Positions 24,676 to 57,346 are shown, counted from the first letter of the stretch. The stretch is DNA of 57,346 bases from Candidatus Woesearchaeota archaeon (GCA_964601675.1 CAZROF010000001.1:1-57346), one strand, 5' to 3'. Numbers and translations: made by a program. The notes: generated by a model from the sequence alone, not told the origin.

Positions 24676-24717
24676 TGGGGTTTGAAAGCCGACTCTTCAT
24701 TTTGGAAAAATAGAAAA

Positions 24718-25280: not shown

Positions 25281-25357
25281 ATTACTACTAAATAGTTACA
25301 AGATATAAATCTTTGCATTTTACAAATATTAAAAAACTTGATTTTCGTATTGAGATT

Positions 25358-28242: not shown

Positions 28243-28258
28243 AAAATGAAAAACCGAG

Positions 28259-28942: not shown

Positions 28943-28993
28943 AAGGAAATTAGGTTTAGAAAGTTTTTAAAATATACTTTCCTCTTAATTATT

Positions 28994-33827: not shown

Positions 33828-33857
33828 AACAATGATAACACAAACAGATTTAAAAAG

Positions 33858-34802
33858 TTAATCCACTAAAGTTGTAATTGGTCTACTCTGAAGAATATAA
33901 AATTTATCCTTCCTTTTTGCCCATTCAATATCTACAGGGAATTTATAATGCTCTTCAATCATTTTTACTAATTTGCCCAATATTACAATTTCTTTTTTTG
34001 TCAAAACTTGATTTTCTCCTTTTTTCTTTAATTGCTTCCATTTATTTTCTCCCTTCTTATTTTTAAATAATCCCTTTACTTTATTATTGATGTTTATATC
34101 TAAGATTCTCCAGTCAGTCTTATCTAAAATATAACTATCTGGAGTGATCTCTCCAGAAACAATCGCCTCTCCCAATCCAAAACATGCTTCAATAACTAAT
34201 TGGTTTTTATCTTTTGTGATTGGATGGACAGAAAAAGCAACTCCAGATTCACTGCTATCTATCATTTTTTGAATAACTACTGCTACGGATATTTTTTCTT
34301 CTTTTAATTTTTTTTCAAGACGATATATTAATGCTCTTGGAGTGAACAGCGAGGCCCAACATTTTTTAATATTCATTATTAGGTTTTCTTTTGAAGTGTT
34401 AAGATAAGTATTTAACTGTCCTGCCCATGCTGCATTAGCACCATCTTCTGAAGTCGCCGAGCTCCTAACAGCAACATATTCTGATTTTAATTTACTATGA
34501 GACTTTATAATTTCATCTTTAATCTTTTTAGGAATATTCTTAGAAATAATTGCAAAATTTATTCTTTCTGAAGCCTTATTTATGCTATTAATCTCTTTTA
34601 GATTTATAGAATCTAATTCCGAGTCAATCTCTATTGATACATCGGTTTCTTTAATAAATTCTTCAAATGCATTTGAGAGTATAACAAATCCTCCAGGTAA
34701 TTCTATATTTGAATTAATTAACTCTCCTAATGAAGCACCCTTGCCCCCTGCTATTTCAACATCGTTTTTATTAATCGAATTTAAATTTCTCACATATCTC
34801 AT
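33858..34802 (-). CDS. stand-alone PPDK_N (PEP/pyruvate-binding ATP-grasp) domain protein
   Basis: GGKGASLGEL, VAVRSSATSEDGANAAWAGQ.NTYLN and VDIEWA..KFYILQSRPIT match the PEP synthase / PPDK N-terminal nucleotide-binding domain. Confidence 0.8.
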   Translation of the reverse strand: MRYVRNLNSINKNDVEIAGGKGASLGELINSNIELPGGFVILSNAFEEFIKETDVSIEIDSELDSINLKEINSINKASERINFAIISKNIPKKIKDEIIKSHSKLKSEYVAVRSSATSEDGANAAWAGQLNTYLNTSKENLIMNIKKCWASLFTPRALIYRLEKKLKEEKISVAVVIQKMIDSSESGVAFSVHPITKDKNQLVIEACFGLGEAIVSGEITPDSYILDKTDWRILDININNKVKGLFKNKKGENKWKQLKKKGENQVLTKKEIVILGKLVKMIEEHYKFPVDIEWAKRKDKFYILQSRPITTLVD

Positions 34803-42834: not shown

Positions 42835-43905
42835 TTATTTCTTTGAATTCTTTTTGCTATCAGGTGTATCTTCATTGTTTCTTTTCCTTCTCCACATAAA
42901 AAAGAAAGCCAATAACACTAAAGCAATAAGAATCGCAATTACAGTCCAGCTACCAACACCACCACCAATAACAGCACCAGTCATTAAGGAAATAAATCCT
43001 TTTTTAGGAGTAGCTGTTTCATTATCACCAGCCAAACTAAAACCAGTTTCATTTGATGTCTCATTTTGCACAATTACAGCATCTACAACACATTTCCCAA
43101 CGCCATTTTCAAGATTGAAATGATATCCATCTCGGCAATTAGGTTTAACCCATCCCCCACTACCAGAAGACTCTTTTTTAGAAGACCCACCACAAGATCC
43201 ACAATTTCCTCCACAATCTATTCCAGTTTCTCTTCCATTTTGTATCCCATCGCTACAAGTAGGTATAATTTCAATAATAGGCTTAGTAATCACAACATCA
43301 ACAACAGTCCCATTGCTCACATTCAAATTTTCACTCGTTCCATTATACTCGCCCTTAATAGCAAAAACACTGAAAATATGAGAACTATTACACTCACTCT
43401 CTAAAAATTCAACAGAATAACTTCCATTAACATTACTAATATTCATTTTAGGAATACCGTCACAAGTCACACTAACATTCGCACCTTCAACAACAGTCCC
43501 ATTTAATGTAGTATTATAAACAGTCCCATTGAAGATAATAATAGATTCAACAACCTCTTTCTTTTCAATCGCAATATTCATAACAGCCCCGAATAAATCA
43601 CTAACATCATTAGCTCCATCACTCCCAGAATAATCTCCTTTCTCGGCAGAAACAATATAATTACTTGAGTTATTACATTCACTAGATAAGAAACTCACAC
43701 CATAAACACCATCACTTTCACTAATAGTGCTCTTCAAAATACCATCACAAGTTACATTAACATTAGCACCTGTTACATTATCGCCACCAATAGTGGTGTT
43801 ATATATGACTCCAGTAATAGGAGTATCAGCAGAAACAATCCCAAAAGAAAAAACCATCAAAAACAATAAAATGAATCCAAACTTTTTTTCCATATTATAT
43901 ATCAT
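42835..43905 (-). CDS. surface protein: signal peptide, two CarboxypepD_reg-like beta-sandwich repeats, 4-Cys module, C-terminal TM plus basic tail
   Basis: The repeats read GVIYNTT..GANVNVTCDG..SDGVYGVSF and GTVYNTT..GANVSVTCDG..VNGSYSVEF. Then PTCSDGIQNGRETGIDCGGNCGSC, followed by WTVIAILIALVLLAFFFMWRRKR. Confidence 0.6.
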   Translation of the reverse strand: MIYNMEKKFGFILLFLMVFSFGIVSADTPITGVIYNTTIGGDNVTGANVNVTCDGILKSTISESDGVYGVSFLSSECNNSSNYIVSAEKGDYSGSDGANDVSDLFGAVMNIAIEKKEVVESIIIFNGTVYNTTLNGTVVEGANVSVTCDGIPKMNISNVNGSYSVEFLESECNSSHIFSVFAIKGEYNGTSENLNVSNGTVVDVVITKPIIEIIPTCSDGIQNGRETGIDCGGNCGSCGGSSKKESSGSGGWVKPNCRDGYHFNLENGVGKCVVDAVIVQNETSNETGFSLAGDNETATPKKGFISLMTGAVIGGGVGSWTVIAILIALVLLAFFFMWRRKRNNEDTPDSKKNSKK

Positions 43906-43923
43906 ATTAGTTACTTTTTAAAT

Positions 43924-44370
43924 TTATTCTTTTCTGACAACAAAAAACACTCCAAGGGCGCTCATCATTGTTAATATTCCCATGAAAAATCCGAATTCAG
44001 GAACAATCGAAACATTAACAACACCTAAATCCCAGTTGTTCAATATAGCATCTTCATGAATAATACCAGAAGCAGATCCATCCATACCGTTTTTTTCAGC
44101 AATAATATTCAAAGAATCACCAGCACTGCAAGATTCTTTATTGTAGATAGCAGTATAGCTACCAGTTGATTCACTAGTTACATTTTGGATATTCCCATTG
44201 CAATTAACCTCAACATTAGCTCCATCAACAACATTAGAAAAATCAGCATTATAAATTTTGCCAGTAATTAAAGTACTCCCATCATTATCAGAAACAGCTC
44301 CAGCAAATGAAACCGACAAGAGTATTGCCATTAGAAATGTTACCATTAGAAAATTAAATAGAGTTTTCAT
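43924..44370 (-). CDS. small PEF-CTERM surface protein (signal peptide + one CarboxypepD_reg-like domain + PEF-CTERM)
   Basis: The C-terminus is VPEFGFFMGILTMMSALGVFFVVRKE: a PEF motif, a TM helix and a basic tail. Confidence 0.7.
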   Translation of the reverse strand: MKTLFNFLMVTFLMAILLSVSFAGAVSDNDGSTLITGKIYNADFSNVVDGANVEVNCNGNIQNVTSESTGSYTAIYNKESCSAGDSLNIIAEKNGMDGSASGIIHEDAILNNWDLGVVNVSIVPEFGFFMGILTMMSALGVFFVVRKE

Positions 44371-44545
44371 ACAATATTATAAAAAATCAGCTTTAAAAGT
44401 ATTATGAAGATAGACTATAGATGTCAGATGGAGCAAAATAACGTCATTTATTCTAAAGAAACTGACAATTACCTAATTCCTCTAAAATATTAATGATTTT
44501 ATATAATGCCCAAAGTTTAATAACTTTATACTGATTAATACCGAT

Positions 44546-46063
44546 ATGGGACGCAATACAGCAAACTCGTCAAAAGATATACAAAATAAAACGAATAGCT
44601 TTGTAAAAAAATCCCCCTTGACTAGAGTATCGTCAAAAATTACAAAAGCTATTAAAAATGTAAAGTTAGAGTATATATTTCTTTCAATTATATTATTATT
44701 CGGTTTCTTCTTAAGAATTTTCAAATTAGGCAAACCTTCTCTCTGGGTAGATGAATCAACTTCTGCCATCGCCTCTAAAATGATTCTAGCGAAAGGATTT
44801 CCAATATTTGATTCTGGATTATTATACAGCAGGGCATATCTATTCCATTATTTGCAATCTTTTTTCTTATTGTTTGGACAGACAGATTTTCTCATTCGTT
44901 TGACCTCTGTAATAGTAGGACTCCTAACTATTCTTCTTGTATACTTTATCGGGAGGGAATATTCTAAATCAGGAGGGTTAATATCTGCATTATTTATGAG
45001 TGTATTCTATCTTGAAGTATTCTATTCCAGACAGGCAAGATTCTACCAGTTATTTCAGTTATTGTTTTTCTTATCAATTTATCTTTTATATAAATCAAAG
45101 AGAAATCCAAAGTTCCTATATACCTCACTGATAGTATTATTTATCACCATAAATGTTCAAATTGCGGGCTTAGTCTTAACTCCTTTTTTTATTATTCATA
45201 TTTTGATTTATAGCAAGAAATGGAGAAAATATTTTGCCATAGTCCCCTTAGTTCCACTTATAGAAAAATTCATGCCAGCGAGGGGGCTTTCAACAGATTC
45301 TGCTAGCTCTGCAGTAAACTATGTCAGTAAATATGCGGCATACACACACAACCTAATTTATATGATTATTCTGTTTTCCCCGGGTGTAATCTGGGGTTAT
45401 TTCAAAAAGAAAAGACTAACTTCACTTATTGTTTTGCCCTCAATTATTCTTTTAATAGGAATATTTCTTCTTCAAACATTTGCCCTAAGATACATCTATT
45501 TCATGGTCTTCCCGTTAATACTGTATTTTTCCTTATTTATGTCGTTTTTGTATGAGAGATATGGGAGGATGATTTTACTAGTTATTTTGGTATTATTGAT
45601 TTTTCCTTCTAACTTTGTTTTTCCATATACCTCTGTTAATATCTTAAAGCCAATTGACTATTCTTTATATGATTCTTCCGCCCCAACTACGAATTACAAA
45701 AATTTACCCCTAGATTTATTGGCGGATTTAAAAAATCCTCAGAACATCCTAGTCTCTTATTTCTCTTCAGATGTGGAATGGAATATCCGTAAGCCAGATT
45801 ATGTCTTGCCCTTTTCAATGGACGGGAGAGGTTATGATCAGATTTCATATAATAATTCAAAAGGAATTTTGGTGGATAGATACTCTGGTTCTCCTATATT
45901 AGATTTTAAGCCAGAAAATTCTTACTACGTCTTAGCGGATAGATTTTCAGTTAGCAAACTTAAACCCTCTCAAAGAGAATTTTTAAGGAGCTTAACAAAA
46001 GGATGTACAATTCCTTACGAAAATTTTGATTTGAGGATTTTTTCCTGCTTTCTGGATAATTAG
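44546..46063 (+). CDS. GT39/GT83 (PMT/ArnT-like) polytopic glycosyltransferase
   Basis: LRIFKLGKPSLWVDESTSA (loop-1 DE motif) followed by more than 10 TM helices and a soluble C-terminal domain. Confidence 0.65.
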   Translation: MGRNTANSSKDIQNKTNSFVKKSPLTRVSSKITKAIKNVKLEYIFLSIILLFGFFLRIFKLGKPSLWVDESTSAIASKMILAKGFPIFDSGLLYSRAYLFHYLQSFFLLFGQTDFLIRLTSVIVGLLTILLVYFIGREYSKSGGLISALFMSVFYLEVFYSRQARFYQLFQLLFFLSIYLLYKSKRNPKFLYTSLIVLFITINVQIAGLVLTPFFIIHILIYSKKWRKYFAIVPLVPLIEKFMPARGLSTDSASSAVNYVSKYAAYTHNLIYMIILFSPGVIWGYFKKKRLTSLIVLPSIILLIGIFLLQTFALRYIYFMVFPLILYFSLFMSFLYERYGRMILLVILVLLIFPSNFVFPYTSVNILKPIDYSLYDSSAPTTNYKNLPLDLLADLKNPQNILVSYFSSDVEWNIRKPDYVLPFSMDGRGYDQISYNNSKGILVDRYSGSPILDFKPENSYYVLADRFSVSKLKPSQREFLRSLTKGCTIPYENFDLRIFSCFLDN

Positions 46064-46103
46064 TTGGAATAAAACTTTTAAACAAATTATACACTCACTC
46101 TTT

Positions 46104-46541
46104 ATGAGAAAAATATTTTTGGTTTTGATTATGGGTTTGTTTGTTTTTTCTATTGCTGGTGTCAGTGCAACGACACTTATTAACGGAGTAATTTATAGTA
46201 GTAATCATATTACATTTGTTTCTGGTGCAAACGTTAGTATAGCGTGCACTCATAGAGATATAATTAATTATAAAAATTCTATTAGCATTTCTGATGGTTC
46301 TTATGGTGCAAGTTTTTTGGAAAGTAAATGCGATGAGGGAGATTCTGTAACTGTTATTGCTAGTAAAGGGGATTTGTCTGGAATTAAAACGAAGGTGGTT
46401 CAAAATAAAATAGACTATCCTGGGGTTAGTGTAAATCTTGCAGTTGTTAATGTAGCAATGACTCCAGAATTCGGATTTTTTCTTGGAACCCTAACTCTAA
46501 TCAGTGTTGTTGGAATCTTCTTCGTAGTTAGAAGGGATTGA
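46104..46541 (+). CDS. small PEF-CTERM surface protein
   Basis: GVIYSSN..GANVSIAC..SDGSYGASF domain. The C-terminus is TPEFGFFLGTLTLISVVGIFFVVRRD. Confidence 0.75.
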   Translation: MRKIFLVLIMGLFVFSIAGVSATTLINGVIYSSNHITFVSGANVSIACTHRDIINYKNSISISDGSYGASFLESKCDEGDSVTVIASKGDLSGIKTKVVQNKIDYPGVSVNLAVVNVAMTPEFGFFLGTLTLISVVGIFFVVRRD

Positions 46542-46620
46542 AAACTCTTAGAAACAGACTTTCTTCTAATAGATAGTTAATCACAATAAACCTTTTAAAG
46601 CAGGATATGATTGATTTTTT

Positions 46621-47070
46621 ATGAAAAAACAAATCACATTATTTTCAGTATTTATGATAGTCGTTATTATGAGCTTCTCTGTATCCGCAAGTACGTCATA
46701 TATAGATCTTTCCAATATTAAAGACACCGTAGTTGGAGGGGTTATTTATAGTAGTGGATCTTTTACTACAGTACCGGGTGCTAATGTGGCAATTACCTGC
46801 GAAGGAGTTACTAAGGAAACAGTTAGCGATTCCATTGGGGTGTATTCTGTACAATTTACTCCATTTCAATGTAGTCTTAATGATGTTGTAACAGTTATCG
46901 CGAAAAAAGGAGATTTATCAGGAGTTAAAACTGCTCCCGTTAATGACTATGGTTTAACTGTAAATTTAGCTATTGTTAATGTCCCAATGACCCCAGAATT
47001 TGGATTCTTTTTTGGAACCCTAACTCTAATTAGCGCTGTTGGAATCTTCTTCGTAGTTAGAAGAGATTAG
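46621..47070 (+). CDS. small PEF-CTERM surface protein
   Basis: GVIYSSG..GANVAITCEG..SIGVYSVQF domain. The C-terminus is TPEFGFFFGTLTLISAVGIFFVVRRD. Confidence 0.75.
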   Translation: MKKQITLFSVFMIVVIMSFSVSASTSYIDLSNIKDTVVGGVIYSSGSFTTVPGANVAITCEGVTKETVSDSIGVYSVQFTPFQCSLNDVVTVIAKKGDLSGVKTAPVNDYGLTVNLAIVNVPMTPEFGFFFGTLTLISAVGIFFVVRRD

Positions 47071-47277
47071 ATGAGTGGTTAGTTTCTAGCAATATTATTT
47101 ATGTAATGTGATTTGTCCAGTGAGATAACCTTTTGAAGAGATATGATTATATGTCATAAATATTCTTATGAAAATTATCTATTCCATATGAGTTCTTTTT
47201 GTTTTCGTTTAATCCCTAAATCTTACTCAATACTAAGAAACAATCAAATTGGGACGCTGAATAACTGCCTATATAAA

Positions 47278-50040
47278 TTACTCTTTAATTAAAAAATCAT
47301 CCATAACACCAAACCCTTTAAAATATATGTCTCCTCTGGTGGGAGTCATTCCATATTTTTTCTGAATTTTAAATCTAAATTTATTGCCTGATTCCATATA
47401 ATGCAAAATTCCATCTTTATCTTGAGTAGATTTAGGTGTTCCTTGGGGCTTAAATCCGTTAGCCATGTTTATAGTATATGTAATTTCTTCAGGCCTGAGA
47501 TAGGAATATTTCGCTAGGTATTTTGCACCTATCGGAGAATGCAAACCTTTAGAATATCTGAGCCATCCACCGGAATCTCCAAGATAAAACCTCATATCAA
47601 GACTATTTTCTGCATAATTCAGATTAATCACTCCAAGATATAATTCATCTACCTTAGATAAGTCGAAATTTATATTATAATCGGTCCAATGGGAATAATA
47701 ATTCTCCGAAAAATTAGCATTAAATCCCACGACTTTATTCTTCCCGTCTTGGAATAGCCTTGCGTTGGATCCATATTTTTCCATAAAATCTGCATCAAGA
47801 TTTTCTTGTGTCTGCTGATTTGCGCTATAAATCATAATCGGGGTTGCTGTCGCAATTGCGTCAAACTCAATATTATTTTCTTTTGTATATGTAAAAGAGT
47901 CATAATTGCAAAATCTTAATCGTAATTTACTAATCTCTCCTGTTTGCCCCGCTCCTTCTAGTTTTGCTTTATGATTATTCGCAACAAATGATGACCATCC
48001 ATCTTCTTGATTTTTTCCTAATTTTAAAGATAATTTATACCACCCTCCGTTTGAAAACTGATATAATCGAACATTTTCATGTTGATTTGATGGTACTTTT
48101 AACTTTCCTCTAATATCATGAATATCGTTTATATTGTATCGTTGGCCTGGAGTTAGCGGAAGATCTATGGCCCGACTTTTCCCATGTTCTAATCCAGCTA
48201 AATTCATTTCATAACTAAATTGTCCTTCATATGGATTTTCCTGAATTATCGCCACATCGTTTGATAAATTGGAACTACCTACTTTTCTCCAAGTATTTTC
48301 CCCCGATTCGGCATCGGATAATATCTGTTCTAAGCTCGTTTTGGCACCAATGTGATAAGAAATATCTCCTATATTATCACTATCATCTTGTGATTTTCCA
48401 GTTATATCAATAAATGAGTTTTCCTTTATATTTCGGACTAAATCACTTTGAGAAGGATGAATTAGTATTTTATCATTTGTAATATATTCTACTGTTTGAG
48501 GACTTCCTCCGATATCTATTTCAGCATAAGGTACTGCTTCGTTAAAAGTAATAGAAATATTTCTTAAGTCTTTGTCGTAATTAACAGATTCTACTATAGG
48601 GGGAGTGACATCTAGATTAGTTATAATTTCTAGCTCTCCACTTGCATTTTTAATTACCTTAAAGTGATCTTCATATAAGTTTCCTGCAAAATCATTAATT
48701 TTAATGTCCTTAACTTCGTCTATTTTTACTATTATCTCTTGAGGATAGGAAGAAACTCCGCAATTATCATAAGAGGCTCCAGAAACTATAATATTACCTT
48801 GACTGTCTTTAAATGGTTTATCAAATGTGAAAGTTAACGGTGTTCTATCTAAAATTACATCAAAAGTTTTTGTTGATGAATGGCTATATTCATCTGTAGC
48901 AGTGACCTGAACAGGATTATCATTTTCTTTCCATTGGGTTGTATATTCTAATGGATTTGTTACTTCTGGGTATAATTTCCCGTTTATTTCTGCGGAACTT
49001 TTAGATGGGTCTTTTACATTCACCTTTAATACATAGTTGGGGTCCTTGGTGCAAATTTTTTGAGCCCCATCTTTATTATATATACTAGTCTCATTCATCT
49101 CATTGTAATATCGACTAAATTCTACCATTATCCGTGGGGGCATACTGTCATAAAATGTTTGACCCCTAAAGGCTTCTCCTCTATTCCCTGAGCTATCTGT
49201 TGCATAACAAGTTATATCATTTGTACCTTGATGGAGATATATAGGATTTGCCCAACTGACCACTTCAGGACCAATTTTAGAAATTGCTTTTGGATAGCCA
49301 TTACACTTAATATCTTTTACAGAATAAGCATCTTGTGCTGTTCCTGTTATCTTTAATTGATTGTTTTTTATAGAAGTGGGGGTGATGATTGATTTTGAAA
49401 ATGGATTCACAGTTATACTAGGACCTAATGTATCTTTTATAATTGTAGTCACAAGTTCGCCTGGAGTTCCATCATGATTTGTGAAATCTGTAGTTATTTT
49501 ATTTAATCCTTCGAAAAGCGGTATGTCTCGCTTGAAATAACCGTTTGAATTTATAGACTGAATCTCATTATTTATTGTTACATAGGGGTTTGTTGTGTTG
49601 AAAACAAAGCCTTCATAAAAATAAGTTTCTTTATTCGTAAATGTATTTTTTGGAGGGTGATTAACACATATAAAAGCATTTTCTTTTATTGATGAGTTTG
49701 AGGGAGACTTTGGCTCTGAAAATTCTGTTGAATCTCCGGTATCAGAATTTCCAGATATTCTAAATAGAAGTGTTGAACTTGGATCGATCGTCGTTGCGAA
49801 AGAATTTGCACAAAGAGTTCTGCCACATACATTTGTAGTTCTTGCAGAATTCACTAACTTATATCTTCCAAAATTTTCCTGCATTTGTGTAGTATAAAAA
49901 TCATAATAGGGGCTAGATTGAGTCCATGCTATGTAAACAGTTTTATCTGCTGCTTGAACAACTTTTTCGGGGATAGTTACATTAGTTACCAAAGTAGCTA
50001 ATCCTAATGTTAGAGCTGTCTTGACTAATTTATTTCTCAT
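47278..50040 (-). CDS. large secreted protein (920 aa) with Ig-like repeats
   Basis: N-terminal signal peptide (ALTLGLATLVTNV..VQAADK). It has HYR/Ig-like segments (GTNDITCYATDSSGN) and no C-terminal anchor. Confidence 0.55.
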   Translation of the reverse strand: MRNKLVKTALTLGLATLVTNVTIPEKVVQAADKTVYIAWTQSSPYYDFYTTQMQENFGRYKLVNSARTTNVCGRTLCANSFATTIDPSSTLLFRISGNSDTGDSTEFSEPKSPSNSSIKENAFICVNHPPKNTFTNKETYFYEGFVFNTTNPYVTINNEIQSINSNGYFKRDIPLFEGLNKITTDFTNHDGTPGELVTTIIKDTLGPSITVNPFSKSIITPTSIKNNQLKITGTAQDAYSVKDIKCNGYPKAISKIGPEVVSWANPIYLHQGTNDITCYATDSSGNRGEAFRGQTFYDSMPPRIMVEFSRYYNEMNETSIYNKDGAQKICTKDPNYVLKVNVKDPSKSSAEINGKLYPEVTNPLEYTTQWKENDNPVQVTATDEYSHSSTKTFDVILDRTPLTFTFDKPFKDSQGNIIVSGASYDNCGVSSYPQEIIVKIDEVKDIKINDFAGNLYEDHFKVIKNASGELEIITNLDVTPPIVESVNYDKDLRNISITFNEAVPYAEIDIGGSPQTVEYITNDKILIHPSQSDLVRNIKENSFIDITGKSQDDSDNIGDISYHIGAKTSLEQILSDAESGENTWRKVGSSNLSNDVAIIQENPYEGQFSYEMNLAGLEHGKSRAIDLPLTPGQRYNINDIHDIRGKLKVPSNQHENVRLYQFSNGGWYKLSLKLGKNQEDGWSSFVANNHKAKLEGAGQTGEISKLRLRFCNYDSFTYTKENNIEFDAIATATPIMIYSANQQTQENLDADFMEKYGSNARLFQDGKNKVVGFNANFSENYYSHWTDYNINFDLSKVDELYLGVINLNYAENSLDMRFYLGDSGGWLRYSKGLHSPIGAKYLAKYSYLRPEEITYTINMANGFKPQGTPKSTQDKDGILHYMESGNKFRFKIQKKYGMTPTRGDIYFKGFGVMDDFLIKE

Positions 50041-50171
50041 CTTCCTTTTTATTTAATATAGTTATTTATATATAAACTTTTATATATATAAGAAGACATT
50101 TAGAATAAGCATATATTTTGAAAAATCGTTTTCATTATAAATGTGTAAATAAAGTGTGCGATATTTCACTC

Positions 50172-53100
50172 ATGGGAGAAAACTACAAAAAAACGCGTTG
50201 TGGATTATTATTGATAATTTTATTTTTAAGCGTGAATATTTCAGCCATCAGCAACGAGACTATAAGCTTCGAGGGAGCAGGGTGGCAGGTTTTCAATATA
50301 ACTATTGGGTATTCTCATATAAATGATTTTACTTTTGACATTTCTGGGAAGGCATATAATTCGTCGTATCCTTCTAATGTAACTGTTAGTTTTGGGAATG
50401 ATTCAAATGTAGGATGGTCATATATGCCTTATAATTCAAGCATAGCTGAAAATGCAAGTTTGATTGAATTTTCTTGGTCTACTAGTCCGTCTACTGCACA
50501 AATTGATTTTATGAGTGGAAATGTCGATGGAACTTATTTAGCTCGACTAACAAATAACCTTTTTACTAAATCTGGTGCCTCTAGCAATGGAAATATCGCG
50601 ATTGGATCGGCAGATAATATTAATGCGCAAGTTTTAGAAATAATAACAGATAATTCCTCTACTCACGCATTTTTACCTTTTATATCTCCTCTTGCCGGTG
50701 GATATGCAGGACTTTATTTGACAAAAGGAGGGTCTACCTATTATTGTAATAGTGATCATAATTTTTCCGCTGTGGTTTCTTGTAATTTGACTTTAGCCGA
50801 AGCTTTAGTCCCTGAGCATCTAGCAAGAGGAGCAGATATTATAAATTTTAGTTGGCTTGAACCAGTGAGTAGTCCAAGCATAGTTAGTGCTATAAATTCT
50901 AGGCTTCAAAGTTGTGGGGTTCCTTGTAATGTTTCAATTAATGTTAGTAGCGCAACTGCGGGAAATATTACGTTCTCAGAATTTGCGGTTGTTGGACCTG
51001 AACCTCCCGCCAATATTTCAATAATTTCTGAAAATTCTACGTATTATCAAATAAATATATCTTCAGAGGCAAACTTAACTAGTGTTAAATATTCCTTTGG
51101 GAAAATACCTGTAGTTAATATTATTCCTATTGTTGCCAACGATGATGAGCCTATTTTAACTGCAAGTCAACGAATTAGATATAATATTCTTATTGATAAT
51201 CTTGCCAGCGCTTGGGATAACTTAACAAACTATAGTCACCCGCTAAATTTTACTTTCTATCAAAATCCGAAAGTTATATCTGATTATTCTATAGGGGAAA
51301 ATAATTTTCTGACATTTTCGTCCAATGCTTTTATTTTAGCAGAAACTCTTGATTCCTCACCGGGTCCTAATATTAATGTTATATTAGATATTCATGATTA
51401 TTTTCCTAATGAAGGTGCTAGCAATTTAAGATCACCTGCTATTTCTGATAATGTAATTGGAAAGGTGTATATGAACGGCTTTTCGGACAGTAATAATAAA
51501 ACTTCTCAATATTTTTATTACAATGAAATTCTTATGAATACGCTTCTCCATGAACTTGCGCATACTTTTATCTTTTATCCTCAAAGTAACGGCAGTAAAT
51601 TATTTTACACTGATCATCCCGCAAGTTTTACTAATATATCAGGTTTTGAAACATATAATGTAACAAAATCCCCAACAGGCAGCGAAGGTTATTATGAAAT
51701 TTATTCTATTTTAAACCAGTTAAGAGTTTATATTGGAAAAGCAGATATTGGAAATGTCTCTCCCCTTCTTTCACCTTTGGATAAGATGTTGCTTGGAATT
51801 TTAAGTTATCATGAGGATGAGAACTATACATTTTACAATGCAAATATTACATGGGAGAGTGATAGATATAATGTTAGTGAAATTACTCCTATAATATATA
51901 ATAATACATACGACATATATATTGTTGCAAATAGAGATATTGAATTTTGGGATGTCAGGTCTGATTCGACAAAAATTGACATGGGGACTAGTACTTCGTT
52001 TTTGATTCCAAAGGCTAGTCAAGGAGATAGTGCTTTATGGGTTTTTGCAGGAGATATAGGACATCCAGATTATTTTAAAGTGTTTAATAATAATGCTTAT
52101 TCAACTAATCAGACTATTATAAATTCTATTTTTTCTGTTAATCTTATTTCTCCCTATGATACCCTTTCTTCGTATGACAATAGCCCAACATTTTATTGCA
52201 GAGCATACGGAAATATTTCCAATATTACATTATATACCAATATAGGAGGGTGGGGAATAGGGGCGAATAATCTTAGTGGAGGAATTATTAATTATACTAT
52301 TTCTAATCTTAATCCTGGTACATATAAGTGGAATTGTTTAGCTTATAATGGCACAAATAATTATTTATTTGCTTCAAATTATACATTCACTATTTTGGGG
52401 AGCGTGCCCCATACTACACTAGGGATTCCTAAAAATGCTTTGCATACTAGATTGACAAATATAAAATTTGCCTGTAATGCTTCTGATGAAATGCAACTAA
52501 CTAACATGTCCCTTTATGGAAACTGGTCAGGAGGATGGCATGCTAATGAAACTGTTAACGTTTCCGGCACATCAAATTCTACAATTTTTACGAAAGTATT
52601 GCCTGAGGGGACTTATGAGTGGAATTGCAAATCAATAAACAACTTAAGTAGCTCTGCCTTTGCTTCTTCTAATAGAACTCTTATAATAACAAACTTAACG
52701 GTGACATTTAATTCATCTAAATGGGATATGTCTGAAACAACTAATTTTTCGAATAAAACAGTGGATGAGTTGAGAAATTTATCTTACGTCAGATTTAAAA
52801 ATTCTTTAGGGAGGATTTCTTTTAAAAATAATCTTTCAATTTTAAGGAATCTTGACATCAAAAATAAAATCAATATAAAAAGTAACTATATTTTTATTAA
52901 TTCTAGTGCTCTGCCTGAATTCGATATCTCCGCGAACCTAACATTGTTTGGTTTAAACTTTAGCAATGTATATGTTTTGCGAGATGGTACAAATTGCACA
53001 AGTTGTGTTATTTATAATTACAGTGGGGGTGTTCTGAATTTTGGGGTTAATGGATTTAGTACTTATTCTGCTGGGGGGCTACCGACTTGCTCGGATGGGG

Positions 53101-53756
53101 TTATGAATGGGGATGAAACTGGAGTAGATTGTGGTGGATCTTGTAGTGCATGTAATAGCGGAAGTAATAATGAGAATTCTGGTGGTGGTGGAGGAAGCGG
53201 AGCTAGTATTAGTCCTATTGTCGAACATAAGGATATACAAGTGATAATTCCTGAGAATATTACAAGGAAAATCACAAATGATACAATAATTTTTATTTAT
53301 CTAGAAAATCCCACAAATGGGCTGAATTTAACTGGATTAAATCTAACTGTCAGTTCAAATATCACTAATTTATCAGTCATGCTTGATAGATATTATATAA
53401 AAAATATCAGCGCAGGAGAGACACAAAAAATAAATCTATCTATTAATGGTAGCAAGGGAGAATATGAGATTAATTTTAGTATTTATATTGAGAGTTTAAA
53501 TATTACTAAAGTATTCACAATGAAAGTTAATCTAACTAAAGAGGATTATAATGAAGCTGTTGTTAAAGATGTAAAGCAGATAGATAGTGAATCAAGAAAT
53601 ATATCTTGGATATGGATTATAATTGGAATAGTTGCCTTAATTTTGATATTTATATTCGCTAAAAAAGGATGGAATAATATCTCAACAAAGAGTAAAGACA
53701 GCATAGCTATTGCTACGAATTATATTATGAATTTGGAAAAATCCCCTAGTTCTTAA
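50172..53756 (+). CDS. giant sequon-rich surface protein with HExxH motif, 4-Cys module and C-terminal TM anchor
   Basis: The start is taken at ATG 50172 (the track start at 50118 is TTG). It has a signal-like CGLLLIILFLSVNISA, dozens of N-x-S/T sequons, LLHELAHTF, PTCSDGVMNGDETGVDCGGSCSAC and a C-terminal WIWIIIGIVALILIFIFAKK. Confidence 0.6.
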   Translation: MGENYKKTRCGLLLIILFLSVNISAISNETISFEGAGWQVFNITIGYSHINDFTFDISGKAYNSSYPSNVTVSFGNDSNVGWSYMPYNSSIAENASLIEFSWSTSPSTAQIDFMSGNVDGTYLARLTNNLFTKSGASSNGNIAIGSADNINAQVLEIITDNSSTHAFLPFISPLAGGYAGLYLTKGGSTYYCNSDHNFSAVVSCNLTLAEALVPEHLARGADIINFSWLEPVSSPSIVSAINSRLQSCGVPCNVSINVSSATAGNITFSEFAVVGPEPPANISIISENSTYYQINISSEANLTSVKYSFGKIPVVNIIPIVANDDEPILTASQRIRYNILIDNLASAWDNLTNYSHPLNFTFYQNPKVISDYSIGENNFLTFSSNAFILAETLDSSPGPNINVILDIHDYFPNEGASNLRSPAISDNVIGKVYMNGFSDSNNKTSQYFYYNEILMNTLLHELAHTFIFYPQSNGSKLFYTDHPASFTNISGFETYNVTKSPTGSEGYYEIYSILNQLRVYIGKADIGNVSPLLSPLDKMLLGILSYHEDENYTFYNANITWESDRYNVSEITPIIYNNTYDIYIVANRDIEFWDVRSDSTKIDMGTSTSFLIPKASQGDSALWVFAGDIGHPDYFKVFNNNAYSTNQTIINSIFSVNLISPYDTLSSYDNSPTFYCRAYGNISNITLYTNIGGWGIGANNLSGGIINYTISNLNPGTYKWNCLAYNGTNNYLFASNYTFTILGSVPHTTLGIPKNALHTRLTNIKFACNASDEMQLTNMSLYGNWSGGWHANETVNVSGTSNSTIFTKVLPEGTYEWNCKSINNLSSSAFASSNRTLIITNLTVTFNSSKWDMSETTNFSNKTVDELRNLSYVRFKNSLGRISFKNNLSILRNLDIKNKINIKSNYIFINSSALPEFDISANLTLFGLNFSNVYVLRDGTNCTSCVIYNYSGGVLNFGVNGFSTYSAGGLPTCSDGVMNGDETGVDCGGSCSACNSGSNNENSGGGGGSGASISPIVEHKDIQVIIPENITRKITNDTIIFIYLENPTNGLNLTGLNLTVSSNITNLSVMLDRYYIKNISAGETQKINLSINGSKGEYEINFSIYIESLNITKVFTMKVNLTKEDYNEAVVKDVKQIDSESRNISWIWIIIGIVALILIFIFAKKGWNNISTKSKDSIAIATNYIMNLEKSPSS

Positions 53757-53814
53757 TACCCGAAATCAGGAAACTAATCAGTGTATTTAAAAATGTTCTT
53801 TCAGCTTAAAATAT

Positions 53815-54759
53815 ATGGCTTTACCAAAAGGATTCAAGGAGTTTTTAGTTAAGGGATTTATCTTAGCTAGCTTGTTCGTATTAATTCAACTAATCACAAT
53901 GGGGCTCGTCGCCAAAACCACCCTCCCCGGGAATCTAAAGCTCTTTGCAATGGATGACCTAGCAGAAGCCGCAATTTTTATGTTAGCTATCTTTATTGGA
54001 TTAAATAGGGATAAAATTTTGAAAATTAAAAGCTATTCTGTCGGAATCAAGACAAGAATCTCATCAGCAGCCTTAGTCATATTGGGGTTATCTGTTTATT
54101 TTGCATATAAGATATTTTTAATAACAAATATAGGATTGACTGCTAGCCACATCTATTCCCTTACAATAATAGAATATTTATTATTATTCATAACCTTATT
54201 TTTTCTTATTAGCCTAGTTTTTGGATTTAAATTTTGTAAGGATTTTTTTAAGGAATTCAAAGCTGGAATATTTTATGTTTTAACCGGAACAATAGTAGTA
54301 TATTCACTAACAAGAGAGTTTCAAAAACTCTGGGTTTACCTTAGCGGATTTGTAGGAAACTCTATTCATTATCTCTTAGGATTAATCGGAACCTCTTATC
54401 TTTATTATGTGAGGGACCTACCTATCATCTCTTTTAACGGCTTTACCATAGGCGTCGCACAAACCTGTTCTGGAATTGATTCTGTTTTATTATTTACCGG
54501 ATTATATCTAGGTATTCTAGCCTGGGACTGGAAATTGATAAATAAGAAAAAAGCCATTGCCGTATATTTTCCCGCACTCTTTGGGGTATTTGTCTTAGAT
54601 ATCATTAGAATTTTCTTACTAATACTAATTGGGGCTTATGTCTCGGAGAGTTTTGCCTTACATACATTCCATACCAACGCTGCATCATTCCTTTTTATTA
54701 TCTATTTCGCACTATTCTGGAAATTTAGCTATAATTGGATGAAAATTAAAAATAAGTAG
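53815..54759 (+). CDS. archaeosortase (exosortase/archaeosortase family; ArtC-like by substrate motif)
   Basis: About 8 TM helices. The catalytic-type motif is VAQTCSGIDS, with conserved Arg (LDIIRIF) and His (LHTFHTNA) positions. It neighbours three PEF-CTERM genes. Confidence 0.8.
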   Translation: MALPKGFKEFLVKGFILASLFVLIQLITMGLVAKTTLPGNLKLFAMDDLAEAAIFMLAIFIGLNRDKILKIKSYSVGIKTRISSAALVILGLSVYFAYKIFLITNIGLTASHIYSLTIIEYLLLFITLFFLISLVFGFKFCKDFFKEFKAGIFYVLTGTIVVYSLTREFQKLWVYLSGFVGNSIHYLLGLIGTSYLYYVRDLPIISFNGFTIGVAQTCSGIDSVLLFTGLYLGILAWDWKLINKKKAIAVYFPALFGVFVLDIIRIFLLILIGAYVSESFALHTFHTNAASFLFIIYFALFWKFSYNWMKIKNK

Positions 54760-54818
54760 TATACTTTTTTCACAATAAGATTTAAATAGTGATTTCATCC
54801 TTATTAAATAGTAACAAA

Positions 54819-56702
54819 ATGAAAGACAAGACACCATATTCAGAGGCATATAAGAGAAAGTATTATACTAAAAAAGAAGTAGGCACACCTAATCTAATTA
54901 AAAAAGAAAATTTAGTAGTCCCCAAAGAAAAACCTATAAAAGAAATTCACAATATATTTCCTAAGAAGAGAAATATAAGATTAGAGAGAAAAATATTTGC
55001 TCAAAAACTAAAGAATGAAAAAAAATCTCGTAAGAAAGCACTAAAAGAGGCTAAAAAAGAGGCTAGGATGATAGCAAGGGAGAACAAAAGGGAACTAAAA
55101 GAATCAATTAAGCAAGTAAAGAAAAAAGAAAAACTCGTAAAGGAAAGAAGGAAAAAGAAAGAGAAGCTTTTCAAGGAGAAAATAAAAACCGAACTAGCTG
55201 AAGAGAAAATGAAGAGAATACTCCTCGAAGAAAAGATTAGAAAAAAGTTGGCTCAGGAGAAATCTAGGAATAGACCCAAAGAAGAAAATTTCGTAGAAGA
55301 AGCAAGGGATGTATTAACTAGCAAAAAGGCTTTGAAAATTGAAAAGTATGTAGTATTTCTCTTTTATTTATTAGTTTTTTTAGGAGCGGGATATTTCCTA
55401 TTAATTAACACCAACCCTAATGCCATACCAAACAGTTTTTATAATTATGAACTATCCGCCTCTGATTCTATGATTTCTAGTAGTCTTAGGAGTTTATACC
55501 TAAAAGACCCAACGGCTCTGGGTGGCATAGCAGAAATCAACAATGAAAGTGCTAGAATGATTGTCTCCGAGAAACCTTTTAATTTTGTATTTAACCCAAA
55601 AAGAAAGATTGGGGAAAACGCAAGTGCAAACATTCAACTCTCCTTTATCAAATCCAATACAGAAATTTACCTAAATGACGAACTAATAATCCCTAACCTA
55701 GACGGTTTTGAAAGAGTTACAAACTTTAGCAATAAGGAGATTTGGGTAAGAGAAAATATGATAAAACCATTTTACATTAAAGAAAATAATACAGAAGATT
55801 TCATCTACGCAAACTTTCCCGGGAAAAGTATCTATTCTTTCGAAAAAATAAAAGGAGGAGCTCCAATAATCCCCGATTACACCAAAGAAGAAACTAGCAT
55901 TAATAAATATGGAAGATTCAGGGGAAATCTAAAACTGGCAGTCTACGCCGAAGGGGACTTGAACATCAATTTTGTAAAGCAAGATTTAAATTGGTATATA
56001 GGAAAAGACGAGTATACCGTAAAAATAACAGACCCCCAAGGAAATGTCTATCTAAATGAAACCTACTGGGATGACGGGGATAAGAAAGACAGTGGAAAGG
56101 GAGATTTTAAACAAAATATAGATGTCAGAGGGAAAAACCTCCCAAAGAATATTTACTATGTGACATTTACTAGAGACAAGAATAATAAAGCGGCCGATTC
56201 AACAATAGGGAATATTAAAATTAATTCTAATAAAGTTTTAATTGTCGGGAAAAGTTTGCCCCTAAGAGAATTCAACTTTTATACAGAGGTTGGCACTCCC
56301 GAGAAGATTGGATTTTATTATTGGCATAACAGAAAAAATCAGAAGATAAAAGTTACCGGGACAAAAAATATGACAATTGATTTAAATGAGAGCTGGAAAG
56401 GGAAAAGATATGAAGAAGAATTAACGAGAGGTCAATACTCCTTTGAAGCCTCAAAAGGGGATTTATGGATTTATTCTAATGCTATTTCTCCCTCAAAAGA
56501 AAGCTGGTTTTACCTCCCAAAAGAGGGAGAAGATAAAATGATTAATCAAGATGTCATAGTTCTTAATAGGAATAAACTTAAGATTGACGGTGATGATATG
56601 GTTTATAATGGGACTATCGCTATCCATGAGGGCGAAAAGATAAGAGTGCAGGTTCTTGACGGATTAAAGACATATTTTAAAAATATAAAATTGGTGATAT
56701 GA
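54819..56702 (+). CDS. type II membrane protein: Lys/Glu-rich cytoplasmic N-terminus, one TM, about 430-aa extracytoplasmic domain
   Basis: The start is taken at ATG 54819 (the track start is GTG). It has a K/E coiled-coil-like tract, then the TM helix VVFLFYLLVFLGAGYFLLI. No motif recognised. Confidence 0.45.
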   Translation: MKDKTPYSEAYKRKYYTKKEVGTPNLIKKENLVVPKEKPIKEIHNIFPKKRNIRLERKIFAQKLKNEKKSRKKALKEAKKEARMIARENKRELKESIKQVKKKEKLVKERRKKKEKLFKEKIKTELAEEKMKRILLEEKIRKKLAQEKSRNRPKEENFVEEARDVLTSKKALKIEKYVVFLFYLLVFLGAGYFLLINTNPNAIPNSFYNYELSASDSMISSSLRSLYLKDPTALGGIAEINNESARMIVSEKPFNFVFNPKRKIGENASANIQLSFIKSNTEIYLNDELIIPNLDGFERVTNFSNKEIWVRENMIKPFYIKENNTEDFIYANFPGKSIYSFEKIKGGAPIIPDYTKEETSINKYGRFRGNLKLAVYAEGDLNINFVKQDLNWYIGKDEYTVKITDPQGNVYLNETYWDDGDKKDSGKGDFKQNIDVRGKNLPKNIYYVTFTRDKNNKAADSTIGNIKINSNKVLIVGKSLPLREFNFYTEVGTPEKIGFYYWHNRKNQKIKVTGTKNMTIDLNESWKGKRYEEELTRGQYSFEASKGDLWIYSNAISPSKESWFYLPKEGEDKMINQDVIVLNRNKLKIDGDDMVYNGTIAIHEGEKIRVQVLDGLKTYFKNIKLVI

Positions 56703-56703
56703 G

Positions 56704-57346
56704 ATGGGAAATATAAAAAATTCTATTAGGATTATTGTTAATGGGGTTAGAAATATTGATTATTATAAGATTCTTCATCACTTTACCATCGGGATTGATT
56801 TTTTGTTTGCGATGTTTTTATTGATGAGCTATCTGGGAGATGCGATTAGTTCTTGGGCTGGGTTTATACCTTATTTCTTTTATTTTGTCGTCGCTATTAA
56901 TACTCTATTTTTTGCTTCAAAGATAAAAAAGATTCCTGAGGAGGATAGGGATGAGTCGAGTATGATTTATTATTTCTCACATTTCTTTTTATTGAGTTTG
57001 GTTATTATTGCGGTTAATCAGTTTTTGAAGAGGCCTTGGATTATTTCGCATTTGAATTATATTAGTGCCTTGAGTGTTGCTTTTGGATTTCTGACGTTTT
57101 ACGCTTATCGGGATCGGGTTGAGAGGGAGATTGAGGACGAGAGGGTTAGTGAAGAGAGAGCGGAGAAGAAGAGGTTGGCGGAGTTTGATTGGAAGTTTCC
57201 TTTTCTGAAGAGGTTTGATTTTTCTTATGGGTTTGAGAGGTTTTGGAAGGAGAGACGGTTTTTTATGTTGTTTTTGGCGGGGGTGTTTTGCCCGTTTGTG
57301 TTTTTGGGTCGGTTGCCGTATGTTTTGGGACGGTGGGGGTATGGGG
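56704..57346 (+). CDS. partial polytopic membrane protein, open to the window edge
   Basis: ATG at 56704 with an open frame to 57346 (no stop, so absent from the track). It has several TM segments and extremely G/T-ending codons. Confidence 0.4.
   Translation, partial: MGNIKNSIRIIVNGVRNIDYYKILHHFTIGIDFLFAMFLLMSYLGDAISSWAGFIPYFFYFVVAINTLFFASKIKKIPEEDRDESSMIYYFSHFFLLSLVIIAVNQFLKRPWIISHLNYISALSVAFGFLTFYAYRDRVEREIEDERVSEERAEKKRLAEFDWKFPFLKRFDFSYGFERFWKERRFFMLFLAGVFCPFVFLGRLPYVLGRWGYG

Follow-up and report, generated by a model that had tools for sequence, protein, structure and literature searches.

An unnamed archaeosortase-family branch and its PEF-tailed proteins in a predicted sorting cassette of a DPANN archaeon

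The 57,346-nucleotide stretch of a Candidatus Woesearchaeota genome analyzed here (the window) holds a group of genes centered on a predicted sortase (Table 1). All open reading frames described in a first-pass annotation were found where it had placed them, including the PMT_2 glycosyltransferase, the 356-aa two-domain, TM-anchored relative of the small proteins discussed below, and the 920-aa and 1212-aa HExxH (HELAH) proteins. The annotation had bounded the locus at 42835–54759. The locus is real, but two conserved downstream partners had been missed; because these two further cassette genes come after the sortase, the functional unit extends past 54759 to the window end at 57346. The proposal of an episymbiotic-type host agrees with a DPANN-type archaeon, which is supported. 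The source habitat is a hydrothermal vent, and the organism is tiny and of symbiotic type. The sequencing runs that hold the locus are all DNA runs.

Table 1 Genes of the sorting cassette and its surroundings, numbered from the first letter of the window
Feature	Position	Strand	Description
Accessory two-domain paralog	42835..43905	-	356 aa; two beta-sandwich copies as in the PEF proteins, Cys-rich module, ordinary TM anchor, cytoplasmic tail
PEF-tail substrate 3 (putative)	43924..44370	-	148 aa; tail of a divergent VPEF...RKE subtype; lies ahead of the GT-C gene, in opposite orientation
GT-C fold glycosyltransferase	44546..46063	+	505 aa, PMT_2/ArnT-like; opens the conserved cassette; WVDES in first extracytoplasmic loop
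PEF-tail substrate 1 (putative)	46104..46541	+	145 aa; signal peptide, beta-sandwich, ...AMTPEF + 19 hydrophobic + RRD
PEF-tail substrate 2 (putative)	46621..47070	+	149 aa; 59% identity to substrate 1 (local alignment, 77% coverage)
Ig-repeat protein	47278..50040	-	920 aa, secreted (predicted), Glucodextran_B-type Ig-like domains; window-specific insertion (probable) between PEF genes and sortase
Sequon-rich protein	50118..53756	+	1212 aa, TM-anchored, HELAH at residue 478, Cys-rich module shared with the 356-aa protein; window-specific insertion (probable)
Sortase	53815..54759	+	314 aa, archaeosortase-family polytopic cysteine transpeptidase/protease (predicted), unnamed subfamily mainly of DPANN archaea
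Sortase partner	54789..56702	+	637 aa from GTG, or 627 aa from ATG 54819; single TM segment between a K/E-rich cytoplasmic helix and a ~430-aa all-beta ectodomain (predicted)
Second GT-C-like polytopic protein	56704..57346	+	N-terminal 214 aa, rest cut by window end; fifth cassette gene

The 314-aa product had been read as an exosortase/archaeosortase with Cys, Arg, and His positions, and profile searches bear out this predicted family membership. It passes the curated cutoffs of PF09721 (Exosortase_EpsH; 41.5 bits against 25.7) and of the exosortase/archaeosortase signature TIGR04178 (36.1 bits against 23, residues 214–303), and at least six hydrophobic 19-mers (Kyte-Doolittle) mark it as a polytopic membrane protein. 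The motif AQTCSGIDS is present, and the putative triad of Cys218 (TCSGIDS), Arg265 (IIRIF), and His286 (FHTNA) is intact. These residues are conserved in 183/184, 182/182, and 181/181 sequences, respectively, of an HMM-guided family alignment and are likewise invariant in alignment A1. The top named subfamily model is XrtE (TIGR04162), at 43.7 bits far below its cutoff of 150; scores against the XrtA and 8TM_EpsH models are also far under cutoff, and none of the ArtA–E models, including ArtC (TIGR03762, cutoff 100 bits), is matched at E ≤ 1. By sequence, we place the sortase in a subfamily that has no name and whose members come mostly from DPANN archaea. Its homologs number 2575 cluster representatives at E ≤ 1e-3. 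The subfamily occurs in Nanoarchaeota, Pacearchaeota, and Woesearchaeota, with single relatives in three further lineages, one of them a CPR bacterium. Elsewhere in the family there are fusions to a Wzx-type flippase, to Bac_transf, and to a (polysaccharide) pyruvyl transferase. The enzyme type is already known; the sortase branch, the tail signal, and the partner genes are all previously undescribed.

Three small paralogs end in PEF tails, as had been recognized, and no other such tail occurs in the 57-kb window. Each tail consists of PEF, a run of 19 hydrophobic residues, and a basic terminus; the C-termini read TPEFGFFLGTLTLISVVGIFFVVRRD (substrate 1), TPEFGFFFGTLTLISAVGIFFVVRRD (substrate 2), and VPEFGFFMGILTMMSALGVFFVVRKE (substrate 3). 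The position of substrate 1 between the GT-C and sortase genes recurs in loci L001, L003, and L007–L012, while substrate 3 is 34% identical to substrate 2 and has a tail resembling those of L003, L005, and L028. The architecture proposed for these proteins (a signal peptide, one CarboxypepD_reg/transthyretin-like beta-sandwich, and a tripartite tail) is borne out by an AF2 model of substrate 2 (pLDDT 76.7) with a helix at residues 2–19, eight strands across 36–120, and a helix at 127–148, for which Foldseek returned transthyretin-like and CnaB domains (E 1e-4 to 1e-3). P125-E126-F127, Cys60, and Cys84 are invariant in the substrate 2 alignments. Across 49 distinct tails the consensus is V-P-x-[VT]-P-E-F-G-x3-G-x-L-T-x2-[SG]-A-x-G-I-F-F-V-V-R-[RK]-x; the protein ends exactly 22 residues past PEF in 44 of these tails, and 39 of the 49 read PEFG. 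In the window tails and in this consensus, PEF directly adjoins the TM helix and the very last residues form a basic cluster; exosortase-type signals lack a spacer before the TM helix (bioRxiv 10.1101/2023.06.07.544157). The same tail is shared by unrelated passenger proteins, one an S8 subtilisin and others of 370–390 aa. The first-pass annotation had labeled the system PEF-CTERM/archaeosortase C. By the refuting condition that the annotation itself had set, that label falls, because neither TIGR03762 (E ≤ 1) nor TIGR03024 (cutoff 23; E ≤ 10, full proteins or isolated tails) matches the window proteins, while the concept of a sorting system survives.

The GT-C glycosyltransferase passes PF13231 (41.6 bits, cutoff 26.1) and gives a weak Agl23-like match (46.7 bits, below 126); a search for a PDB sequence relative found none. 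Its orthologs (61–78% identity) lie directly 5′ of PEF genes in L001, L003, L007–L012, L023, L030, L033, and L037. The WVDES motif after TM1 is kept as W[VI]DE in L003, and the meaning we give to this acidic stretch of the first extracytoplasmic loop comes from GT-C enzymes in general. Directly 3′ of the sortase gene, partner orthologs show 49–57% identity. All 47 partner homologs are unnamed or “hypothetical,” and searches of Pfam, NCBIfam, and PDB gave no match to the 637-aa protein. A fusion of sortase and partner in a continuous 802-aa ORF (P0046/L043) is known from one metagenomic contig. The partner model (AF2, pLDDT 82) has an ectodomain with generic beta-sandwich/CBM-like Foldseek matches only, which at TM 0.1–0.2 are structurally not significant; the ectodomain thus has no recognizable fold relative, and any role given to the partner is a guess. 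The truncated second GT-C-like protein is 63% identical to the N-terminus of a 696-aa protein with a weak PMT_2 match (L001, 12843–14933) and 48% identical to that of a 664-aa PMT_2 protein (L008, 12507–14501).

The conserved core, as predicted from these comparisons, comprises five genes, namely the GT-C glycosyltransferase, the PEF proteins (1–3), the sortase, the single-pass partner with its all-beta ectodomain, and the second GT-C-like protein. Of the interleaved genes that had been counted as parts of the system, the GT-C enzyme is conserved, whereas the 920-aa and 1212-aa genes are not found in the related loci searched. The 920-aa protein (PF09136, 53.5 bits over two stretches) has homologs in 0 of 22 such loci; the 1212-aa protein, with 71 N-x-S/T sequons against 26.9 expected from composition and sub-threshold Pfam matches throughout, is absent from the same number save for a partial 29% match in L022. 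We read these two genes as an insertion seen in this window alone, outside the conserved cassette. The 356-aa paralog matches CarboxypepD_reg in two stretches (26.9 bits, under the cutoff of 32.3), its domains are 31–44% identical to those of the PEF proteins, and it carries 18 sequons where 5.6 are expected. Similar genes follow the PEF gene in L028. As it has no PEF motif, it is probably not a sortase substrate.

Retrieval through the sortase alone yielded 19 non-redundant loci, of which 15 carry a PEF-tail gene within ~10 kb, at sortase identities down to 29%. No PEF gene lies in the available flanks of the other four (L006, L014, L016, and L022), and in one genome the PEF gene and sortase occupy separate sites of one 415-kb contig. 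Homology among the tails, and their recurrence close to a homologous sortase in this many loci, show that the association is not due to chance. One and the same five-gene order is shared by L001, L003, L007, L008, L011, and L012, and L009 and L010 follow it as far as their short contigs extend. Where present, the PEF paralogs number 1–3, in tandem beside a dedicated sortase, and two GT-C enzymes flank the sortase unit in every close relative, followed by a flippase/GT2/GT4 cluster. Because no named subfamily or sorting-signal model reaches threshold, the pairing of this enzyme with these tails is drawn from co-localization only.

We consider it probable (roughly 0.72) that the locus is a dedicated protein-sorting cassette in which a sortase of an unnamed exosortase/archaeosortase branch cuts and re-anchors small surface proteins. 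The PEF proteins would be exported by Sec via their N-terminal signal peptides, and their C-terminal helix would keep them in the membrane transiently. This helix, with its rigidly conserved length and Gly/Thr/Phe positions, would dock into the polytopic sortase. We infer that Cys218, aided by Arg265 and His286, would attack at or beside PEF, releasing the 22-residue tail and forming an acyl-enzyme. Resolution of this intermediate onto a membrane-resident nucleophile would leave a ~100-residue transthyretin-like beta-sandwich, free of signal peptide and tail, covalently tethered at the cell surface. Candidate acceptors are a glycolipid or glycan and, by the proposal made for ArtA, a lipid amine. 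ArtA depends on Cys173, Arg214, and Arg253 for its activity, and the mechanism put forward for it is a thioester/archaetidylethanolamine model (PMC9263693, PMC7157517). The sortase would work with four conserved neighbors or neighbor types, these being the GT-C glycosyltransferase, the single-pass all-beta protein (sometimes sortase-fused), the second GT-C-like protein, and, in most cases, a glycan-synthesis cluster next to them, and so sorting may go together with glycan assembly on the outer side of the membrane. An adhesin or host-contact role for the PEF proteins is speculation.

The glycan-related setting suggests a variant of this mechanism that differs in the acceptor, which would be a sugar or lipid-linked glycan and not a lipid amine; alternatively, the main product could be a glycan/EPS layer conjugated with the small proteins, as at bacterial PEP-CTERM/EpsH loci. 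The two flanking GT-C enzymes with the cluster behind them, the family fusions to glycan-related domains, the weak likeness of the partner ectodomain to CBM/glycan-binding beta-sandwiches, and the absence of PssA/PssD-type lipid genes or domains from the window ORFs scanned are all in its favor. The ectodomain likeness, however, lacks structural significance, the PEF proteins bear just 0–2 N-glycosylation sequons each, and no precedent for a glycan acceptor has been shown in the exosortase/archaeosortase superfamily, leaving this reading rather unlikely. It is very improbable that the locus is a canonical archaeosortase C/PEF-CTERM system, as in methanogens and ANME archaea. The window tails do share its signal layout, and the distant relatives L020 (Methanosarcinales) and L017 match ArtC weakly (39–42 bits), as their tails do TIGR03024 (12.5–16.9 bits), so the clades are probably related. 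Yet these same matches are a positive control showing that both models are in the library, where they go unmatched by the window proteins and XrtE is the best named hit. We know of no description of a GT-C and partner-protein cassette as an ArtC feature.

We give scarcely any credence to covalent polymerization of pilin-like subunits, in which the sortase would join the C-terminal carboxyl of one to a Lys of the next, as Gram-positive class C sortases do. In Foldseek, the SpaA, BcpA, and GBS pilins have CnaB-type domains that match the mature domain (E 5e-4 to 5e-3), the paralogs are in tandem, and Lys96 is invariant among 12 close homologs; but many non-pilin proteins match this generic transthyretin-like sandwich equally well, the distantly related L017 and L019 homologs have another residue in place of this Lys (sequences read by eye), and the presence of the tail on an S8 protease better fits general anchoring. 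Least probable is that the PEF tails are ordinary permanent membrane anchors and the sortase homolog acts on something else. Cleavage of the tails is a prediction, and the 356-aa and 1212-aa neighbors do have plain TM anchors. Such anchors, however, would need neither an invariant PEF, a fixed 19+3 length, nor conserved intramembrane Gly/Thr/Phe across passengers of unrelated fold, and they would not track the sortase gene through archaea and bacteria.

Among known systems, archaeosortase C/PEF-CTERM belongs to the same superfamily, and PEF adjoins the TM helix ahead of a basic end in both. Distant members of the present family weakly match both of its models, the window proteins neither; the window-type tail adds invariant Gly+3, Gly+7, and Thr+10, GIFFVV, and an exact 22-residue length, and the cassette, which lies in a DPANN lineage, has a pair of GT-C enzymes along with the novel partner. 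Neither the sortase (E ≤ 1) nor the tails (E ≤ 10) matched any model named for thaumarchaeal PEFG-CTERM or thaumarchaeosortase, which we presume to be NCBIfam families, a result that carries no positive control for their presence in the library. The ArtA/PGF-CTERM system of Haloferax volcanii is, to our knowledge, the sole experimentally studied archaeosortase. In methanogens, linkage of ArtA with PssA/PssD is seen; the neighbors here are GT-C enzymes. Membership in ArtA/PGF-CTERM was rejected, as no ArtA model is among the matches of the window sortase (in a search whose positive control covered the ArtC and PEF-CTERM models), the motif is PEF in place of PGF, and the window ORFs scanned have no PssA/PssD-type domains. 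The two systems share a polytopic enzyme, a Cys and an Arg that are conserved and that ArtA requires (PMC9263693), and a tripartite C-terminal signal, and ArtA, with its proposed thioester mechanism and lipid anchoring (PMC7157517), is the mechanistic template for the present proposal. H. volcanii has nine predicted ArtA substrates, one being the large S-layer glycoprotein, and genomes that encode ArtA have 1–52 predicted substrates (PMC6098224); those here number 1–3, are small, and lie adjacent to the sortase gene.

Of the named subfamily models, that of exosortase E/VPEID-CTERM scores highest with the window sortase and with the relatives of this enzyme (43.7–68.9 bits), and its cognate VPE(ID) motif resembles VPE(F) here. 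Membership was rejected, as these scores are far under the cutoff and the 314-aa window protein matches just positions 49–290 of the 516-position model, which, per its name, includes a protease part. Gram-positive sortase-pilin operons likewise set a dedicated transpeptidase beside 1–3 small CnaB/transthyretin-like substrate genes, but their enzyme fold and signal are unrelated, and polymerization is without evidence here. Bacterial PEP-CTERM/exosortase (EpsH) loci also place a sortase homolog amid polysaccharide/glycan biosynthesis genes; they differ in motif and belong to diderm bacteria with tens of substrates, whereas the present system belongs to mostly archaeal, monoderm cells with few, adjacent substrates.

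Every gene listed in the first-pass annotation appears in an ORF map of the window. The motif AQTCSGIDS falls within the 314-aa sortase, and in a motif-agnostic scan of the 57-kb window tripartite C-termini were returned for three small ORFs only (see table). The 314-aa protein scores above the curated cutoffs of both Pfam Exosortase_EpsH (41.5 bits, cutoff 25.7) and the NCBIfam exosortase/archaeosortase signature TIGR04178 (36.1, cutoff 23, residues 214–303), and hydropathy gives it at least six membrane segments. Among aligned family members, Cys218 is conserved in 183 of 184, Arg265 in 182 of 182, and His286 in 181 of 181. This Cys/Arg/His set defines the exosortase/archaeosortase superfamily (bioRxiv 10.1101/2023.06.07.544157), and the Cys and Arg have been found essential by experiment in ArtA (PMC9263693). 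When 1.84 billion cluster representatives (50% identity level) were searched with a profile, 2575 sortase relatives were recovered at E≤1e-3, 222 of them also at E≤1e-30; the family is therefore large. Close homologs are named “archaeosortase/exosortase family protein” (Nanoarchaeota and Pacearchaeota MAGs) or are unnamed. In the PDB, no sequence match was found for the sortase profile, for the product of the next gene downstream (hereafter the partner) or for the GT-C protein.

Positions of the features discussed, in the window and in related loci retrieved by homology (L numbers)
Feature	Locus	Position (strand)	Remark
708-aa protein	window	18240-20366 (-)	
DDE_Tnp_1 transposase	window	23049-24308 (-)	
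Transposase and adjoining low-GC stretch	window	23049-34000	
356-aa protein	window	42835-43905	
Small ORF (PEF gene)	window	43924-44370 (-)	ends in [VT]PEF, 19 hydrophobic residues and RKE or RRD
Small ORF (PEF gene)	window	46104-46541 (+)	ends in [VT]PEF, 19 hydrophobic residues and RKE or RRD
Small ORF (PEF gene)	window	46621-47070 (+)	ends in [VT]PEF, 19 hydrophobic residues and RKE or RRD
1212-aa protein	window	50118-53756	
Sortase, 314 aa	window	53815-54759 (+)	
Fourth cassette gene (partner)	window	54789-56702	49-57% identity to counterparts
N-terminal extension of partner	window	54789-55300	
Fifth cassette gene (GT-C-like)	window	starts 56704	cut off by the window edge
Rce1-like (CPBP) protease gene	L005	7073-7765	
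Larger proteins with PEF tail	L013; L029; L031	1941-3191; 5092-6216; 3654-4826	a 416-aa S8 subtilisin-like protease and two 370-390 aa proteins
Two ORFs beside sortase homolog	L016	7526-9479 (-)	
Small protein and sortase homolog	L018	2199-2666 and 9842-10807	

The window is ordinary archaeal chromosome from a hydrothermal-vent metagenome. It encodes a threonyl-tRNA synthetase with the archaea-specific editing domain, two class I (Trp/Tyr-type) tRNA synthetases, and an Elp3-like protein, the last read from its translation and from a radical-SAM/acetyltransferase counterpart in related locus L008. When RNA evidence was sought, the runs containing the locus proved to be DNA metagenomes only. Away from the locus, a transposase gene adjoins a low-GC stretch (25–30% vs about 33%) that carries genes for a PRA isomerase, a CN-hydrolase, an AMP-binding enzyme, a 519-aa NAD-epimerase, a PLP decarboxylase, and a GHMP kinase, and that may be an acquired island. 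A 708-aa protein pairs a weak, sub-threshold MG2 (alpha-2-macroglobulin-type) match with a nucleotide-cyclase catalytic-domain match barely above cutoff, an odd combination.

PEF-CTERM (TIGR03024) and archaeosortase C (ArtC, TIGR03762) are given as a recognised pair in a passage of PMC5244752 that cites Haft et al. 2012. The first-pass annotation had assigned the locus to this pair and had itself made the label depend on such matches; neither model matches any window protein, isolated tails at E≤10 included, and the label does not stand. What survives is the broader concept of a sortase with PEF-type substrates of its own. Models missing from the library and matches lost to filters were ruled out by a positive control, in which both models were found, sub-threshold: the sortases of loci L020 and L017 score 39–42 bits on ArtC (cutoff 100), and the L020 tails score 12.5–16.9 bits on TIGR03024 (cutoff 23). 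In the NCBIfam HMM search, the ArtA–E models gave no match to the window sortase at E≤1, and the top named subfamily was exosortase E, whose cutoff of 150 bits far exceeds the score of 43.7. From the lack of window matches and the sub-threshold scores in L020 and L017, we infer that the clade, a member of neither ArtC nor XrtE, is probably a relative of both.

The AlphaFold model of a PEF protein (pLDDT 76.7) contains a signal helix, an eight-stranded sandwich (residues 36–120), and a terminal TM helix (127–148). Foldseek groups the sandwich with transthyretin-like, carboxypeptidase-D regulatory, and CnaB domains (E 1e-4 to 1e-3), a placement with which the sub-threshold CarboxypepD_reg matches to the small proteins are consistent. 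Homologs of these proteins have no NCBI names; the close ones share two invariant cysteines, and all retain the tail. Across 49 distinct tails gathered from all fetched loci, P, E, and F are invariant, Gly+3, Gly+7, Thr+10, Gly+16, and Phe+18/+19 are 80–90% conserved, and the protein ends exactly 22 residues past PEF in 44. Conservation of this kind inside the membrane is what would be expected of a signal read by a membrane-embedded enzyme. The same tail also ends larger passengers, among them an S8 subtilisin, and therefore behaves like a portable sorting module that is not tied to any one protein family; the clientele of the sortase would thus not be limited to small beta-sandwich proteins.

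Of 19 non-redundant sortase-seeded loci (window, L001, L003, L005-L009, L011, and L013-L022), 15 carry a PEF-tail gene in the 10-kb flanks that were available, in most cases immediately upstream of the sortase. This pairing is kept down to 29–33% sortase identity, and the paired loci include Methanosarcinales, Acidiferrales, and CPR (Levyibacteriota) MAGs. When the search was seeded with the small proteins instead, 19 metagenome loci were retrieved in which PEF genes stand singly or in tandem arrays, with at most three per locus, and a sortase is present in five with contigs reaching beyond the PEF genes (L023, L024, L029, L039, and L040). One genome has its cassette divided between two sites of a 415-kb contig: a GT-C and a PEF gene at one (L037, 415,824-bp contig), and the sortase, an unrelated 164-aa ORF, the partner, the second GT-C-like gene, and a glycan cluster at the other (L042, a 294,974-bp assembly of the same protein, from the same genome). 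Adjacency is therefore usual, not obligatory. A larger insertion between PEF gene and sortase in L037 was considered and rejected, the sortase part being at the L042 site. The Levyibacteriota locus, L018, has a homolog of the small proteins whose tail reads SVPEFST, and a sortase homolog 7 kb away; this suggests that the system is common to DPANN archaea and CPR bacteria.

Two further neighbourhoods deserve mention. Beside the L016 sortase homolog, which is without a nearby PEF gene, two ORFs look by eye SagB-type dehydrogenase-like and YcaO-like. At L005, whose sortase is 36% identical to that of the window, an Rce1-like (CPBP) intramembrane protease gene stands directly upstream of the PEF-tail gene.

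Gene order is shared by all close relatives: a GT-C gene (PMT_2), one or two PEF genes, the sortase, a protein of ~500–600 aa, and a GT-C-like protein of 630–730 aa, usually with a flippase/GT2/GT4 cluster downstream on the other strand. The same five cassette genes are found in the window, and the extent of the locus needs correction accordingly: the genes first ascribed to it are present, but the fourth and fifth cassette genes lie beyond the coordinates it was given. Within the window, genes for 920-aa and 1212-aa proteins place 6.7 kb between the PEF genes and the sortase. Except for one partial match in L022, neither has a counterpart in the 22 related loci searched, and by this comparison the two, both coding for large surface proteins, are inserted locally. 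At its position the minus-strand PEF gene is likewise an extra copy, and close-relative cassettes yielded no counterpart, upstream of GT-C, of the TM-anchored 356-aa paralog. The 356-aa and 1212-aa proteins have in common a Cys-rich module, TCSDG[IV]xNGxETG[IV]DCGGxCxxC, and a strong excess of N-x-S/T sequons (18 vs 5.6 expected and 71 vs 26.9 expected, respectively), unlike the PEF proteins, which carry 0–2 and are not enriched.

The partner has no Pfam, NCBIfam, or PDB relative, and each of its 47 homologs is unnamed or “hypothetical”. In its model (pLDDT 82), a long cytoplasmic helix rich in Lys and Glu leads through one TM segment to an all-beta ectodomain of ~430 residues. Foldseek returned a generic beta-sandwich with jelly-roll/CBM-type likeness only, at TM-scores of just 0.1–0.2, and we therefore assign the partner no fold family or function. 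Its N-terminal Lys/Glu-rich extension is unusually long in the window and in L001 (a predicted single helix of ~100 residues); most orthologs are 480–530 aa and do without it. In one relative, on a single contig, the partner is joined in frame to the sortase C-terminus in a continuous 802-aa ORF (P0046), Rosetta-stone evidence that the two proteins probably act together. This fusion was the sole match when the extra parts of the long sortase fusions were compared with the window proteins by BLAST. Pfam shows that elsewhere in the family the sortase is joined to a Wzx-type flippase (Polysacc_synt), to an initiating sugar transferase (Bac_transf), or to a polysaccharide pyruvyl transferase. These fusions to glycan enzymes, together with the two GT-C neighbours, tie the family to glycan assembly.

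In the best-supported reading, PEF proteins would be exported by Sec, the tail would dock within the membrane, Cys218 would cleave at PEF, and the cleaved protein would be transferred to a membrane-resident nucleophile, a scheme for which the model proposed for ArtA (PMC7157517) is the template. No PssA/PssD or other lipid-synthesis genes were found in the window. Given the glycan gene context, a glycolipid or glycan acceptor is a serious alternative, albeit one we regard as rather improbable. Plain permanent anchoring by the PEF tails is unlikely because the motif is so rigid.

Pilus-like polymerisation of the PEF proteins would be in line with their CnaB-type fold, the tandem paralogs, and a Lys that is invariant in close homologs. 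That Lys is not retained in distant homologs, however, and the same tail is found on a protease, so we grade polymerisation low. The broadest proposal is a long shot: the sortase would do more than lipid-anchor its substrates and, with the ectodomain partner (fused or adjacent) and both GT-C enzymes, would assemble the small CnaB/transthyretin-like subunits into a covalent surface structure; the product would be a sortase-polymerised fibre or a protein-glycan conjugate layer, serving host-cell contact in ultra-small DPANN archaea and at least one CPR bacterium.

DPANN cells require physical contact with a host. To our knowledge, almost nothing has been established about how their surface is made, and experimental archaeosortase studies are confined to ArtA of haloarchaea; our literature search found no description of an archaeosortase in DPANN archaea. 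The present family brings a very simple, adjacent, and rigidly defined substrate along with conserved partners, one of which is fused to the enzyme in a relative. It offers a model, compact and testable, of intramembrane signal recognition by exosortase-type enzymes, as well as a handle on the acceptor they use. The 26-residue tail provides a sequence signature for finding DPANN surface proteins in metagenomes, and the curated models of NCBIfam 20.0 cover neither this subfamily nor its signal.

Three elements are already known: the superfamily of the enzyme, the logic of the tripartite signal, and the PEF motif. New are an unnamed subfamily, mainly from DPANN archaea, that the curated models of NCBIfam 20.0 do not reach; its PEFG-type tail of fixed length; and a conserved cassette of five genes, among them two for GT-C enzymes and one for a novel partner, fused to the sortase in one relative. 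The value of the system lies in its compactness as a model and in the annotation gap it marks, not in a new principle, and its connection to glycan assembly is one that bacterial PEP-CTERM/EpsH loci likewise possess.
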